NCBI GenBank assembly: GCA_043813805.1
Contig: JBDRKR010000020.1
Coordinates: forward strand, 3,130-67,129
Direction: 5' to 3'
From: Candidatus Nealsonbacteria bacterium
GTDB taxonomy: Bacteria > Patescibacteriota > Minisyncoccia > Minisyncoccales > MHMH01
DNA length: 64,000 nt
Shown: positions 15,001-24,000 of the stretch, piece after piece
Position numbering within the stretch: the first letter of the stretch is position 1
How the letters are laid out: the number at the start of each line of letters is the position of its first letter
Made by a program: the position numbers

Positions 15001-18000
15001 TTAGCTTTATACTTCGCCGACAAGGATATTATTTTTCACCGTATAACCAAGCTTAATTTTTTCGGCCGCCATTACCGGCTCAAGAATAATCGATCTACCG
15101 TGCTGGTCGAGATAACCTATCGGCCTAAAAGCCGATTGGCCGGTTTGAAAAAAGATGAGATTAAGCGAAGGGTGATAAACGATTTAGACAGATTGGATTT
15201 GATTAAAAAAAGAGACGTAACCGATGTTGATTTTAAAAACTTCGAATATGCCTATGTGATTTACGATTTGGATCACAGGAAAAATACCGATCGCGTTTTA
15301 AAATATCTATCAAGGGAGGGAATACTTTGCTGCGGCCGATTCGCCGAGTTTGAATATTTGAACATGGATTCAATCCTCGACCATAGCTACCAATTGGCCC
15401 AAAAATTAAATAAAAAACGCTGATGGACAATCCCATAAAACTATCCATTATTACGCTCGTTTATCAAAACGAGAAGATAGAAGACTACATCAGAGAAATC
15501 CAGGAAAAAATAATCAAAAGATTCCGGGACCTGCGGGTCGGCGGCGTTGAATTCATTGTCGCTGAAGACGGGAGCAAGGATGACACGAGGGCCATTCTTC
15601 AGAGCATCAAAGAAAAATACGGGTTGATATTAAATCTCGGCAGCCAGCGCCGGGGTTATATCGGGGCTGCCAAAGAAGTTTATATGCAAGCCAAAGGTGA
15701 GTATATCTTTTTTGCCGATTCTGACAGGGAAAGCGACCCCGGTGATTTTTGGAAGTTATGGGATAAACTTCAAAGGGAAAATTTAGATATTGTTGTCGGA
15801 TACAGAAAAAGCAGAAGGCCCTACTATCGGTTTTTCATCACAAAAATAAACGGTTTCCTGACCGGGATACTCTTCAATGTTTGGCTTGGGGACGCCAATG
15901 CCGGATTTAGAATAATCAAAGGGAATGTAGCCCGGAAAATAATTCCCTTAACCGGCAACTTGTTGGCGGCTTTTAACGCCGAATTTTTTGTAATTGCCAA
16001 GCAATTAAAATACTCATACGGAGAAGTTCCGATTAAACATTTCTTCCAAAAAAGCGTGGTTTTTCCCGTAAAAAAGATGCCGTTGACCTTAATAAGAGCT
16101 TTTTTTGAATTATTCAGATTGAAATTTAAGATTCTTAAAGGAGCTATAAAAAATTAATGAAAGTGGTTTTTGTCCATGTCAAAGAGAATTTTACGCCCGT
16201 CCCTCCAACGGGATTGCTGTATGTGGGAACGCTCCTTAAAGAAAGGGGCCATGACGTGAGGGTTTTTGATGTAAATATAAAAGAAAAAAACAGCATCATT
16301 AAAAAAATAAAAGACATTGATCCTGATCTGATTGGTTTCAGCGTTATGACCACTTCTTATTCAGTGGCCAGGGAGTTTCATCGCGAGCTTAAAAAAGAAG
16401 TTCCTTTTGCCTACTATTGCTGGGGCGGTGTTCACGCCACAGCCTTGCCCATAGAAACCATCAAAGAGAACGAGCTCGATTTTTTGGTTTACGGCGAGGG
16501 AGAATTTACCATGGTTGAAGTTTGCCGGAGGATAGGGGGCAAAAAGAACAGCCCCGAGCAGGGGGTAAATCTTTCGGGCATTAACGGCGTTTATTATGTT
16601 GAAGGGGGAACGATTAAAAATACGCTTCCCCGCGCTTTTATAGAAAATCTCGATTCTTTGCCTATTCCCGACAGGTCTCTCCTTGAAAATTTTAAGTGGT
16701 ATCTTTCTCCGCCCGGCATATTAAGGGGTAAGTTTTACTACGGCATTACTACAATGTATGCCTCAAGGGGTTGCCCTCATCAGTGCATCTTCTGCGCAAG
16801 TAAAATTGTCCACGGGAGCAAGATAAGAAGGAGGTCGGTTGACAACGTGATAAAAGAAATGAGCTATTTGAAAGATGAGTTTGGCGTTACCGGAATATAT
16901 TTTAATGATGATACTTTCGCCACACATGTGGTATGGTTAAAAGAATTTTGCGACCGATTAAAAGAAAGCCGTCTCAATATGGTCTGGGGCTGCCAGACAA
17001 GAGCCGACATCGCTCAGAATTTAGATATTTTAAGAATGATGAAAGAGGCCGGTTGTGTTCAAGTTGATATCGGGTGCGAATCGGGATCGGACAGGATTCT
17101 TAAAAATCTGAAAAAAGGAATAACCTCTTTGATGATTCTGAAATCATTTGAGAATCTTAAGAAGGTGAAAATGGAGACATTCGCCACTTTTATTCTGGGG
17201 AATCCCGGGGAAACCATGGAGGATGTGAAAAAAACAGAAGTAGTGGCCGGGCGCGCTCCGGGAGGGGTCAGCTTTCTGATTTTGGTGCCCTACCCCGGTT
17301 CCCCGCTTTTTCAAATGGCGCTGGACAATAAATGGTTTATTGATAAAAATATTGTTTTTGATGACCGCTGGACAAACAAGCAGTCCGATACTCCGGTGAT
17401 GGAAGCAAGTTTTAAAGCCGCCGATTTGATTAAAATAAGGGCAAAATTGCAGAACAAATTTTTTCTCCGGAACAATATTTCGACAATACTTTCTTTTTTG
17501 AGAAGCCCCTATTTCTTTTATAAAGCCATGAAGATTGTTGTGACTCATCCCGTTTTTATTTACAAATCTGCAAGAAATGCTTTAAAGAAAAGAAAAACGA
17601 TGGATTTTCTTGAGGATTTGTATCAGAAATTTAATGAAGAATTAAGAAAATGAAAATCACTTTTATCCACATGGGAGCCGAGTCTCTCGGCATAGAATAC
17701 CTTTCCAGTTGCCTGAAACAAAGGGGACACGAGGTTGATTTGGTTTTCGACCCCGCTCTGTTTAATGACCAAAGATTGTTCAGCAGTCCCGGGTTGTACA
17801 AGATTTTTAACAACAGTTCAAATTTGATAAAAAATGTTTTAAAATCGAAACCCGATCTTGTCGCTTTTTCCGTTTTTACGAATAATTACCAATGGGCATG
17901 CGACTTGGCCCAAAAACTAAAAAAAGAGATTAATGTGCCCATAATATTCGGGGGGATTCATCCGACATCCTGCCCGGAAGAGGTTATCGGACAAAAATTT

Positions 18001-21000: not shown

Positions 21001-24000
21001 TCATTTTAGGTGAAGGCGAAGGCACTATTCTAAAAGTTATTGATTGCTACCAGGGCGAAATTAAAAAAGAGAGCATAGGCGGGATAGCCTACAGAGATTC
21101 GGGCAACAAAATCAGAATCAATGCCAAAACTAATTATGAGGATGTAAATAAAATACCGTTTCCGGCCTATCATCTGATTAATATGGACCGTTATTTGGCA
21201 CGAAATTATTCTATCAGGGGTTATTGGCTGAGAAATGGTTGGGTATTTACTTCAAGGGGATGCCCGGGTAGGTGCACATTTTGCGCGAGTTACCTTACAC
21301 ATGGTTATAAAGTAAGAGAAAGGAATATTGATGATGTAATCGAGGAATTAAAGTTTTTAAGTGAAAAATATAAAATCGAAGGATTCGATATCTTAGACGA
21401 TACTTTTACGGTAAAAACAGAGAGAGTTGTGGAATTTTGCGGGAAGTTAAGGGAATCGGGCTTGAACTTAAAATGGGGCTGTCAGGCCAGGGTAAATTTC
21501 TTTAACGAAACTCAGGCTGCGGCATTAAAAAAGGCGGGCTGCCTGCAGGTCGATTTTGGCGTAGAATCGGGTTCGCCGAGGGTTTTGAATTATCTTAAAA
21601 AGGGGATTACCGTAGAGCAAAGCAAAAAAGCTTTTAAAATTTGTCAAAAATATAAATTGAGATCACTGGCGACTTTCATGATCGGAACACCGCATGAAAC
21701 CATGGAGGACGTTCAAAAAACAAAAGAACTGCTTAAAGAATTAAAGCCGGATTATATCGGTATTTTTTTTACAACTCCCTATCCGGGAACCGAACTTTAT
21801 AAACAAACCCTTGAAAACAAGTGGTTGGACTTAAGGAGCGACGATTTGAGCTGGGAGAGCAACGCAACCCCCAAGTTTACCATGAATTTTACCCGCGAAG
21901 AATTGCACGGGATATACAACAGTTTGATAAAAGATAATTTTAAAAAGACGATAGCGGGGTATATCAGGCAGCCGTCTTTTTTATTCGATGTGATAAAATT
22001 CTCAATTTTGAATCCCTCGGACTTATTTAAATTGCTTATTTTACTTGGTACAGGAAAGAGGGAAAAACTTATCAATGCCCTGCGTGAGTTCAGGATAAAG
22101 GGAAAGTTTTAGCAATATGAAACTTAATAAAACAGACATAAAAATAAGCAGCGCCTTTTCAAAACTGGATGGGACTCGGATTCTTCATATATCCGATTTG
22201 CATCTTGCTGGGAGAAATAAGAGGATGGAGCGTTATTTCGAAAAATTAGGAAAGATTAAAAGTGATTTTGTCATGGTAACCGGCGATTTGATAGATAATG
22301 ATGACGGGATCGAGTGGTGCTTAAAATATTTGAAAAAACTTTCTCCCCGGTTCGGCATCTGGGCTTGCCTTGGCAATCACGATAAATTTGGCCTGAGCAT
22401 ATTGCACACGCTTTTTTTTCATTTAATGGGCACGCTCAAGGAAAATAATTTTGAACTCCTCGGGCGCAGATTGAAAGAAAGCGGTATTCAGATTTTAATA
22501 AATGAAAAGAAAACCATAAATGTTAATTCGGTGCCATTAACGATTATCGGAGTGGATGCGCCATTCGGCCTTGATAGATGCAAAAATAAAAATATGTTTT
22601 CAAAAAAAATAACACCCCTAAGGGAGTTATTTTCAAATATTCCACCAAAGAACTATGTTGTCTTATTAAATCATGTGCCGGATTTGCTGAAAGAATTGGG
22701 CGATGTCAAGATAAACTTAGCGCTTTGCGGACATACGCACGGCGGCCAGATACGTTTGCCGTTTATCGGTCCCCTTGTCGCTTTTTCTTCTTTTCAGCGG
22801 GCATATAACAAAGGTTTATATAATTATAACGGTTATTATTTACACGTCAGCGGGGGATTGGGCGCAAGTAAAACAACGTCCATAAGATTATTTTGTCCCC
22901 CTGAAGCTACGATATTAACATTGAGAAGCTAAAAACTTTTATAAGATTTTATTATACTCAATAAGTGTTTTGTCTCAAGAAGCATGGTTGAAAAACCGTT
23001 ACATCTGCTGTAACACAGATTGCAAAACCAAAATTTTCCGGTTGATTTTCTTGCCTCGTTGACCTCTTTGCTGAAATAGATGTCTTTTAAATTTCCCCGG
23101 GCCAGTCCCATTGTATAATTATCGCAAGGAAACCCCACGGCGCCATCCGGCTTGATCGATATGTTGGCGGTCAGGGCCTTGCAGCCGAAATTAGCCAAAC
23201 TTCCCTTTTTGAGCATTTCAAGATAAATGTCGGGATTGGCGATCGTTTTTCCGTACATTTTTTTTAGCTTGGTGATGCTTTCAATAAACCAGTTTACGTT
23301 GGAAACAAGCTGCGTCTGTTCCTTCATCAGATCCGATTTTTGAGGATTTATGACGGTAGACGGAAGAGAAACTCCCACCATCGAAAAATCAATCTGGACT
23401 CCCAGTGATTTTGCAAGCTCTGTAAGATATATCAAATCTTTGAATTCCATCAAGTTGCTTACGGCCGTCACGATCATCGGTTTTTTTCCATAACCCTTTA
23501 ATGTTTTTATTCCGTTAACAGCATTGTCAAAAGCTCCCGGGCGTCTTCTGATTTTATCGTGGATTTCTTTGGGACCGTCTATGCTGACCCTGATCATATC
23601 GGCCCCTAAAAGATTTTTTGCGGTCTCTGTAAGCGTTGAACCGTTTGTGCTGAAAAATACGGTCATCTTTCTTTTTTTGGCCTCGCTAATGAGGAGGGGC
23701 AAGTCTTTTCTTAAAGTCGGTTCTCCGCCGGAGAAATTCAGTATCCTGGTTCCAAGATCGCCGAGTTGCCGTATGATATCAATTGCCTCCGTGGTGTTTA
23801 ATTCGGGGGATTTCTTTTTTAACGCTATATTTCTTTTGGGCATGCAAAATTGACAATCCATATTGCAATCATAAGTAATCTCCCATTGGCAAAAAATAGG
23901 CACGGGTTTTATGTATTTAGCCTTTAAAATAGCGGGAATCATCCGAAGCCCCGTATTCAATTTTGATAATAATATTTTAAACATCAGATTGTTTCATGAA

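Follow-up and report, generated by a model that had tools for sequence, protein, structure and literature searches.

Why does one stretch of 64,000 nucleotides (nt) from a bacterium with a reduced genome hold twelve genes for B12-binding radical S-adenosylmethionine (SAM) proteins, and do the four of them that lie in a row act as one unit or as separate enzymes? The stretch, hereafter the window, covers positions 3,130 to 67,129 of the forward strand of contig JBDRKR010000020.1 (assembly GCA_043813805.1, Candidatus Nealsonbacteria bacterium), and its genes are named below by their start positions. A preliminary description had divided the twelve paralogs into two motif-defined subfamilies, group I and group II, plus one outlier, and had proposed stoichiometric co-expression of the four-gene array, which has the order II-I-II-II. 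Our analysis recovered group I, dissolved group II and found equally tight gene packing across the window. We consider it rather probable that the array is part of a surface-glycan island encoding twelve separate, anciently diverged enzymes, which would carry out independent radical tailoring of sugars, mainly C-methylation.

Predicted architecture of the twelve B12-radical SAM proteins

The twelve open reading frames (ORFs) were examined with domain profiles. All of them contained an N-terminal B12-binding domain (PF02310, 33-88 bits against a cutoff of 32.1) and a Radical_SAM domain (PF04055, 47-106 bits), and each of the proteins, which are 450-541 amino acids (aa) long, carried a single CxxxCxxC motif, confirming the earlier count of twelve paralogs. 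For 43264 and 62105, the starts given in the preliminary description fitted the alignment better than the longest-ORF starts at 43204 and 62048. In OxsB, TsrM and TokK, the cobalamin tail is held by a Gly-Gly motif in beta4 and a Gly-Glu motif in alpha5 (PMC9204698). The Gly-Gly motif was kept in 11 of the 12 window proteins, the exception being 43264, where it is replaced by LIGS, and the Gly-Glu/Asp pair was present in all twelve (G(E/D)GE in ten, GEAE in 19130 and GEPE in 43264). 43264 also gave the weakest PF02310 match of the twelve, at a borderline 33.2 bits, and it may not bind cobalamin. Judged from their sequences, all twelve proteins are predicted to be cobalamin-dependent (class B) radical SAM enzymes.

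AlphaFold models of 17650 and 20655 had predicted local distance difference test (pLDDT) scores of 94.0 and 94.4, respectively. The 17650 model matched solved cobalamin-dependent radical SAM folds at template modeling (TM) scores of 0.6-0.68 and 11-17% identity, and the folds nearest to the 20655 model were MgmA (9ccb) and AprD4 (6fd2), at 20-23% identity. Both models displayed the three-part architecture and matched TsrM, MgmA, CysS, AprD4, TokK and OxsB about equally (TM 0.6-0.71, 11-23% identity; E 1e-16 to 1e-27), with the 20655 model slightly nearer to MgmA and AprD4. The modeled folds thus also place these two proteins among the cobalamin-dependent radical SAM enzymes. None of the twelve proteins reached the cutoff of a curated NCBIfam model, and the group I proteins scored at most 144 bits on any model. 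The genes and their neighbors are listed in the table.

Table. Coordinates of the B12-radical SAM genes and associated features in the 64,000-nt window
Feature	Coordinates	Strand	Evidence and remarks
Glycan-biosynthesis island	1748..63583	.	Pfam scans; small EamA-like ORFs
Amine-oxidase/UDP-galactopyranose-mutase-like flavoprotein	14128-15423	+	Pfam; directly upstream of the array's GT2, overlapping junction
GT2, 244 aa	15423-16157	+	Pfam; adjoins array start
B12-radical SAM, 498 aa	16157..17653	+	"group II"; B12-binding 78 bits, Radical_SAM 72 bits; CPHQCIFC at residue 206
B12-radical SAM, 496 aa	17650..19140	+	group I, 17650/30148 subclade; Pfam; CPFNCFYC; hairpin IKNLWFKKDGEIIKN
B12-radical SAM, 504 aa	19130..20644	+	"group II", nearest Sden_1168 family; Pfam; CPHRCTFC
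B12-radical SAM, 485 aa	20655..22112	+	"group II"; Pfam; CPGRCTFC
Calcineurin-like phosphoesterase	22117..22932	+	Pfam Metallophos; directly downstream of array
Small radical SAM without B12 domain, 351 aa	22929..23984	-	Pfam Radical_SAM + Fer4_12; paired with 23977
B12-radical SAM, 467 aa	23977..25380	-	"group II", nearest HpnJ; Pfam
B12-radical SAM, 507 aa	30148..31671	+	group I; Pfam; small radical SAM gene 31655 next
Small radical SAM without B12 domain, 347 aa	31655..32698	+	Pfam; paired with 30148
B12-radical SAM, 477 aa	33931..35364	+	group I; Pfam; class I methyltransferase 35369 next
B12-binding-like radical SAM, 451 aa	43264..44619	+	"group II", degenerate cobalamin motif
B12-radical SAM, 450 aa	50960..52312	+	group I, 50960 subclade; Pfam; class I methyltransferase 52320 next
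B12-radical SAM, 541 aa	54088..55713	+	third, rarer family ("outlier")
B12-radical SAM, 491 aa	55719..57194	+	"group II", nearest BchE; Pfam
Radical SAM/SPASM, 328 aa	59587..60573	+	Pfam Radical_SAM + SPASM
B12-radical SAM, 492 aa	62105..63583	+	group I, CPNNC variant; Pfam; hairpin VKNLWVKKEGKIVKN

Group I is a clade and group II is a residual assemblage

Phylogenetic trees were built by neighbor-joining with Kimura-corrected distances and 200 bootstraps, one from 92 sequences (434 columns) and one from 130 sequences. Characterized families were placed by profile scores and PDB alignments only. In the MAFFT alignment of the window proteins, pairwise identity was 28-49% within group I, 27-34% within group II and 20-28% between the groups, and 54088 was 16-22% identical to the other 11 paralogs. 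Every motif quoted in the preliminary description was reproduced in this alignment. Group I (17650, 30148, 33931, 50960 and 62105) formed a clade with bootstrap support of 96.5% in the 92-sequence tree and 97% in the 130-sequence tree, and the neighbor-joining trees placed 62105 inside it. The clade has a private hairpin, I-K-N-(L/I)-W-F-K-K-x-G-x-I-I-K-N, of which the N was kept in 62, the W in 63, the K in 63 and the final N in all of 64 relatives; group II and 54088 carry G-(I/L)-x-(Y/F) where group I has the N-(L/I)-W-x-K of this hairpin. When 207 ORFs from 85 loci were scored with hidden Markov models of the two groups, the score difference was bimodal, with 132 ORFs assigned to group I, 64 to group II and 11 ambiguous, and the two profiles aligned to each other with E = 6e-88 over 410 columns. 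Group I is therefore a coherent and genuinely separate subfamily, one without a curated model at cutoff or a close solved structure.

Group II (16157, 19130, 20655, 23977, 43264 and 55719) was not recovered. No split supported it, internal supports were about 0, and the sole supported pairing among the six genes was that of 16157 with 20655 (81.5% bootstrap). The LPxP linker and the RGCPxxCxFC motif, which had been taken to define the group, turned out to be generic. A PDB profile search found the linker and the Cys loop as P-L-P-A-R-D-L and GCPYPC in AprD4, I-P-S-P and RGCPYQCTYC in CysS, and V-P-T-P and SRGC in OxsB; MgmA shares the Cys loop (RGCPGNCTFC) and has a linker with L-P and no second Pro. 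L-P-F-P-D-K-x-L-F and S-R-G-C-P were also the majority state in the 64-sequence group I alignment. Since these motifs occur in solved enzymes and in most group I relatives, they are ancestral features of the class and not subfamily markers. What had been called group II is a remainder made up of no fewer than four or five deep lineages.

54088, described earlier as fitting neither group, belongs to a third and rarer family, which formed its own clade with 100% bootstrap support. Its profile was nearer to group II than to group I, and only 73 relatives were found at E<=1e-10, with a 62% match in a metagenome-assembled genome (MAG) of Ca. Lokiarchaeia (P0246). The two-family scheme thus gives way to a single real clade, a rare family and a mixed remainder; its group I part was recovered by the tree and its group II part was not. 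Because group II is not one lineage and its motifs are ancestral, the suggestion that two reaction types or two substrate classes are used repeatedly does not follow and is not supported.

The paralogs are anciently diverged

The closest pair of window paralogs, 17650 and 30148, was 48.6% identical, and no pair exceeded 49%. Hundreds of proteins from Omnitrophota, the candidate phyla radiation (CPR), DPANN and other taxa were 40-50% identical to both members of this pair. Eight of the 12 paralogs, including the four array genes, had one-to-one orthologs at 73-94% identity in related contigs, among them those of 16157 (88% in L001, 77% in L086 and 73% in L024) and of 19130 (94% in L001 and 80% in L086). 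A Nealsonbacteria contig (L007, RIFCSPLOWO2_01_FULL_43_32) contained syntenic orthologs at 79-94%, with 23977 matched at 90% and 33931 at 94%. The relatives of 54088 in related contigs were 77-89% identical. The products of 20655 (P0121), 30148 (P0013) and 54088 were 100% identical to radical SAM proteins of Candidatus Nealsonbacteria MAGs, and for 49 group I genes of other species the best-matching window protein was 50960. The low identity among the paralogs and the closer orthologs elsewhere rule out recent tandem duplication, in agreement with the preliminary description, which had argued against a simple recent duplication.

The closest orthologs outside Nealsonbacteria were found in MAGs labeled as archaea. 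They included a 66% match to 17650 in L006 (JANQNH010000030.1, "Ca. Nanoarchaeia") the 73% match to 16157 in L024 (JBDRJQ010000032.1, "Nanoarchaeota") and the 62% match to 54088 in the Ca. Lokiarchaeia MAG. They point either to a recent transfer between domains, among ultra-small organisms, or to mis-binning.

Tight packing is found throughout the window

The ORFs and their domains confirmed that four B12-radical SAM genes lie back to back on the plus strand at 16157-22112. The three junctions between them measured -4, -11 and +10 nt, as expected from the overlapping or near-adjacent stops and starts reported earlier. The 244-aa family 2 glycosyltransferase (GT2) gene upstream overlaps the first array gene by 1 base (-1 nt), and the calcineurin-like phosphoesterase gene starts +4 nt past the array end. 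The window as a whole is about 95% coding, with 54 ORFs of at least 150 aa, and the B12-radical SAM genes make up 27.5% of its bases. Among its 51 same-strand junctions, 26 overlap and 12 further ones are no longer than 10 nt, so that 38 of the 51 are as tight as those of the array. The packing of the array therefore gives no specific evidence of stoichiometric complexes, and the operon packing should not be read as stoichiometry, contrary to the co-expression in fixed proportions that had been proposed.

A functional neighborhood rather than a gene order is conserved

The II-I-II-II array was found in groundwater metagenome contigs L001-L003 at 88-94% identity and in L086 at 76-80%. The order was kept only in these contigs, at orthology of at least 76%, and was broken in L006, L024, L087 and L088. 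In L006, a GT2 gene is followed by a group I gene, a SPASM radical SAM gene and another group I gene, and then by the phosphoesterase and flavoprotein genes on the opposite strand. L087 (GCA_017973895.1), which has a 70% ortholog of 20655, has the order phosphoesterase, I, II, SPASM radical SAM, II, GT2, flavoprotein, and L088 (Omnitrophica), with a 65% ortholog of 20655, has the order flavoprotein, II, GT2. The flavoprotein and the small GT2 accompanied the 20655 ortholog in L001-3, L087 and L088 in shuffled order, and the phosphoesterase was kept beside radical SAM genes in L001-4 and L087. Among NCBIfam models this phosphoesterase matched YaeI best, at 115 bits where 188 are needed, followed by LpxG, at 92 bits where 350 are needed. 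What is conserved is a functional neighborhood, made up of several radical SAM genes along with those for the flavoprotein, the phosphoesterase and the small GT2, and not a fixed gene pair.

To survey group I more widely, the hairpin was used to scan one genome per species, which retrieved 372 stretches, of which 303 were confirmed as relatives. In 80 species loci anchored on a group I gene, a group II gene was present within 10 kb in 31 and at least two group I genes were present in 25. The co-occurrence of groups I and II that the preliminary description had suggested looking for is thus common, but it is not obligatory, since 49 of the 80 loci had no group II gene nearby. Fusions of a group I with a group II protein were sought as Rosetta-stone evidence and none was found; the only fusions were of two group I proteins or of a group I protein with a methyltransferase.

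Five MAG loci from Omnitrophota and Planctomycetia (L018, L020, L021, L023 and L027) contained four to six group I genes in near-continuous B12-radical SAM runs of five to seven genes. These runs had no group II gene, and their second gene was often one of the ambiguous class.

An 810-aa protein of Omnitrophica CG07_land_8_20_14_0_80_42_15 (L015:8554-10986) consists of a group I B12-radical SAM protein fused to a class I (Methyltransf_11-like) methyltransferase. In the window, class I methyltransferase genes lie 4-7 nt behind two group I genes, 33931 and 50960. These observations suggest that a group I B12-radical SAM enzyme and a class I methyltransferase are a recurrent functional pair.

The array lies in a glycan-biosynthesis island

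Pfam scans placed the array in an island that contains glycosyltransferases of families GT1, GT2, GT4 and GT9 and two GT-C (PMT_2) enzymes, together with at least six short-chain dehydrogenase/reductase (SDR) epimerases, dehydratases or reductases, a carbamoyltransferase and several class I methyltransferases. Group I has a similar setting in other species. Of the 80 species loci, 29 had GT2 genes near group I and up to 29 had small radical SAM genes there, whereas SDR, GT9 and NTP-transferase genes were each present in 11-14. The 119 genes that flanked radical SAM blocks included 20 other radical SAM genes, about 16 class I methyltransferases, 15 GT2, 6 GT1/4 and 5 GT9 genes. Group I is an uncharacterized and widespread subfamily that is consistently associated with glycosyltransferase, sugar-nucleotide and methyltransferase genes in many phyla of bacteria and archaea.

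Several other parts of the island concern sugars. At 7432-9772, a GDP-mannose 4,6-dehydratase gene is followed immediately by a TylC3-type (Methyltransf_13/14) sugar C-methyltransferase gene, so that a C-methyl-branched 6-deoxyhexose can already be made in the island by conventional means, alongside the radical enzymes. Two separate heptose-activation sets with unusual fusions are present, one at 37627-41220 (a GHMP kinase, a SIS-transaldolase fusion at 38619 and an NTP-transferase-HAD phosphatase fusion at 39946) and one at 48453-50963 (SIS, PfkB and, at 50013, a cytidylyltransferase-like-HAD fusion), suggesting that both GDP- and ADP-type heptose routes exist. The region 9772-14126 is an ArnC/E/F/T-like polyprenyl-phosphate sugar module. 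Its members are a 472-aa GT2, whose C-terminal extension (residues ~250-472) gave no Pfam match, two 126-aa EamA-like ORFs (11202-11582 and 13746-14126) and a PMT_2 GT-C (11587), and it points to polyprenyl-phosphate-linked sugar transfer outside the membrane.

Three small radical SAM genes without a B12 domain (22929, 31655 and 59587), absent from the preliminary description, are also present, and none of their products reached any NCBIfam cutoff. Small radical SAM proteins of this SPASM/Fer4_12 type were the commonest immediate neighbors of group I in other species (24 of 125). Between 31655 and 33931 lies a gene for a DUF362-ferredoxin fusion (32695-33786), a candidate electron donor to the radical SAM clusters. 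Upstream of 43264 and a GT9 gene is a 680-aa ORF (41217-43259) with at least 14 hydrophobic, transmembrane-like segments and no Pfam or NCBIfam match; its product could be a membrane protein of a new kind, whether a polymerase, a ligase or a GT-C-like protein. A search of the window for tRNA genes found none.

Independent sugar tailoring and its alternatives

We propose that these genes serve a densely packed island of about 60 kb for surface-glycan biosynthesis in Candidatus Nealsonbacteria, a member of the CPR. Each enzyme would most likely act alone on a sugar intermediate that is activated by a nucleotide or linked to polyprenyl phosphate. Methylation of an unactivated carbon via methylcobalamin, the reaction most frequent in this enzyme class, would be the main chemistry, and a minority of the enzymes, with 43264 as the obvious candidate, may carry out cobalamin-independent or rearrangement chemistry such as deoxygenation. 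Co-transcription would follow from the packing of the whole island and not from a fixed-ratio complex. We infer the sugar substrates, the methylation chemistry and the independent action: the gene context here and in other species suggests radical tailoring of sugar intermediates, and C-methylation is the likeliest chemistry, being the reaction most often catalyzed by cobalamin-dependent radical SAM enzymes (PMC9204698) and having sugar precedents in GenK and GenD1. For some of the enzymes, deoxygenation or rearrangement is possible because they resemble AprD4, HpnJ or OxsB.

Several points weigh against this proposal. As far as the profile scores go, no characterized family's cutoff was reached, so that homology allows neither substrate nor reaction to be assigned; non-methylases (AprD4 and OxsB) are among the closest solved structures, and function prediction in this class is unreliable (PMC9204698). 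An Rfam scan of the window found no family at threshold and hence no cobalamin riboswitch, and no feature of the window accounts for the cobalamin supply of an organism with a reduced genome. The assignment of the MAG could be a binning error, as close orthologs lie in archaea-labeled MAGs. Finally, no report linking B12-radical SAM enzymes to surface glycans or to the CPR was found, which is weak evidence, as the literature searched was incomplete.

An unlikely alternative is that most of the enzymes are not methylases but catalyze AprD4-like diol dehydration or deoxygenation, or ring contraction of the HpnJ or OxsB type, with cobalamin absent or in a non-methyl role. For group II, AprD4 was the closest PDB entry in sequence and ranked second in the fold comparison, HpnJ was the best NCBIfam match for four group II genes, OxsB was the best PDB sequence match of 17650, and 43264 has lost the Gly-Gly motif. 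These similarities are, however, far below cutoff (at most 117 bits against 500 for AprD4 and 254 against 577.6 for HpnJ), the Gly-Gly and Gly-Glu cobalamin motifs are present together in 11 of the 12 proteins, and the methylases MgmA, TsrM, CysS and TokK fit the folds equally well. The prevalence of methylation in the class also argues against it (PMC9204698).

The substrates could instead be lipids, either polyprenyl carriers or scavenged membrane lipids, which we regard as improbable. Precedents are the hopanoid methylases HpnP and HpnR, MoeK5, the synthases of glycerol dialkyl glycerol tetraether (GDGT) rings (GrsA and GrsB) and the H-GDGT methylase Hgm. In line with such a role, isoprenoid lipids are modified by B12-binding radical SAM enzymes (bioRxiv 10.1101/2023.10.20.563219), the window contains the polyprenyl-phosphate sugar module (ArnC-like GT2, EamA-like flippase subunits and GT-C), and LPG_synthase_TM proteins accounted for 6 of the 119 genes flanking radical SAM blocks. 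30148 scored highest on the ladderane-lipid model TIGR04072, yet its 111 bits fall short of the 360-bit cutoff. Moreover, the context consists overwhelmingly of sugar-nucleotide and glycosyltransferase genes, and no lipid-synthesis genes were found in the window. Group I also occurs in both bacteria and archaea, whose lipids differ and which have nucleotide sugars in common, a distribution that would favor sugars.

It is very unlikely that groups I and II are two functional classes acting as stoichiometric partners, perhaps in hetero-oligomers, with the interleaved and coupled genes fixing their ratio. The overlapping or near-adjacent starts and stops, the order shared by four related contigs at 76-94% identity and the group II genes within 10 kb, often adjacent, in 31 of 80 group I loci would all fit such a partnership. 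However, one of the supposed partners does not form a clade and has only generic motifs, tight junctions are the rule in the window, the gene order is lost in more distant relatives, 49 of the 80 loci and the Omnitrophota arrays do without group II nearby, and the fusions join group I to itself or to a methyltransferase but never to group II. To our knowledge, the solved enzymes of this class are monomers or homodimers, which also speaks against partners.

It is extremely unlikely that the proteins are PoyB/PoyC- or ApyD-type C-methyltransferases whose substrate is an unrecognized precursor of a ribosomally synthesized and post-translationally modified peptide (RiPP). Weak matches to the ApyD and rSAM_ocin_1 models and a low-score resemblance of the small SPASM-type neighbors to peptide maturases speak for this reading. 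Against it, the matches to the two models are far below cutoff (NF050148, at most 183 bits against 750; TIGR03975, at most 120 against 281.85), Pfam found no peptidase, ABC-exporter or RiPP-recognition domain in window ORFs of at least 150 aa, no ORF for a precursor peptide was seen (the listing of small ORFs covered 11100-14200, with no systematic search), and the context is one of glycan biosynthesis.

Significance

The points of interest are how densely these enzymes occur in a reduced genome (twelve of them account for 27% of the 64 kb, and the expected size of the genome is ~1 Mb), how cleanly group I can be delimited and how its distribution crosses the domains. Cobalamin-dependent radical SAM enzymes carry out chemically hard alkylations and rearrangements, and most of their sequence space is unexplored (PMC9204698). 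If the window enzymes edit surface sugars, they would represent a new layer of prokaryotic glycan diversity, provide new biocatalysts for C-H methylation of sugars and link the surface of a reduced-genome symbiont to an imported vitamin. More speculatively, group I may be a dedicated family of enzymes for cell-surface glycans exchanged across domains among very small, host-dependent organisms of the CPR, DPANN and Omnitrophota, and such islands may build heavily C-alkylated or radical-edited heptose and deoxyhexose glycans. We consider this wider idea possible but doubtful; if true, the surface chemistry of the symbionts would be tied to cobalamin from the host or the community.

Comparison with known systems

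TokK, CysS, TsrM and OxsB share the fold of both groups (TM 0.6-0.71), with the Gly-Gly and Gly-Glu motifs and the Cys loop conserved. They differ in sequence (11-20% identity), in size (540-740 aa, with extra domains) and in their substrates, which are carbapenems, a carrier-linked (pantetheinylated) acyl intermediate, tryptophan or nucleotides. For 17650, the top named match was the MJ_1487 family (TIGR04013), and membership was rejected at 99 bits for 17650, 105 for 30148 and 97 for 62105 against a cutoff of 251.

Five of the six group II genes scored best on the curated models of HpnJ (TIGR03471) or BchE (TIGR02026), with 175-254 bits; 16157, for example, matched HpnJ best, at 183 bits against 577.6. 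All these scores were nevertheless less than half of the cutoffs (577.6 for HpnJ and 481.35 for BchE), the group I proteins reached only 79-130 bits, and the window context has no hopanoid or bacteriochlorophyll genes. Membership was rejected for both families, the best scores being 254 bits (23977) for HpnJ and 201 bits (23977) and 197 bits (55719) for BchE.

The strongest named similarity was that of 19130 to the Sden_1168 family of putative P- or C-methyltransferases (NF038361), at 329 bits over nearly the full length. It fell short of the cutoff of 575, all other window proteins scored at most 150 bits, and membership was rejected. The physiological substrate of SD_1168 itself is not known (PMC9204698).

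MgmA/QCMT (9ccb) was the top fold match of 20655 (E 7e-27, TM 0.65-0.75, 23% identity). MgmA is of comparable size (~420-450 aa) and has the same three-part architecture. It is, however, the glutamine C-methyltransferase of methyl-coenzyme M reductase, so its substrate is a protein and its setting the methanogens, and the window proteins scored at most 154 bits on TIGR04014 against a cutoff of 360.

Among solved structures, AprD4 (6fd2), a paromamine 1,2-diol dehydratase, was closest to group II in sequence (E 3e-27 with a single sequence and 5e-45 with a profile). It matched the 20655 fold at TM 0.67-0.72, it acts on a sugar, and it has the P-L-P-A-R-D-L linker and the GCPxxC loop in common with group II. 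Identity was only 20-21%, and membership of its family (NF033070) was rejected, the best score being 117 bits (23977) where 500 are needed. AprD4 is not known to use cobalamin, in contrast to the presence of cobalamin-tail motifs in 11 of the 12 window proteins.

GenK and GenD1 belong to the same class and, like the window proteins, have N-terminal cobalamin and radical SAM domains. They act on unactivated sugar-ring carbons, and their genes lie in clusters with glycosyltransferases and sugar-modifying enzymes. Compared by description only, the two settings differ in that the window is a CPR surface-glycan island with twelve such enzymes, whereas gentamicin is made by an aminoglycoside cluster with one or two. 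GenK and GenD1 are cobalamin-dependent radical SAM sugar C-methylases (PMC9204698), and it is chemistry of this kind that we favor for most of the window enzymes.

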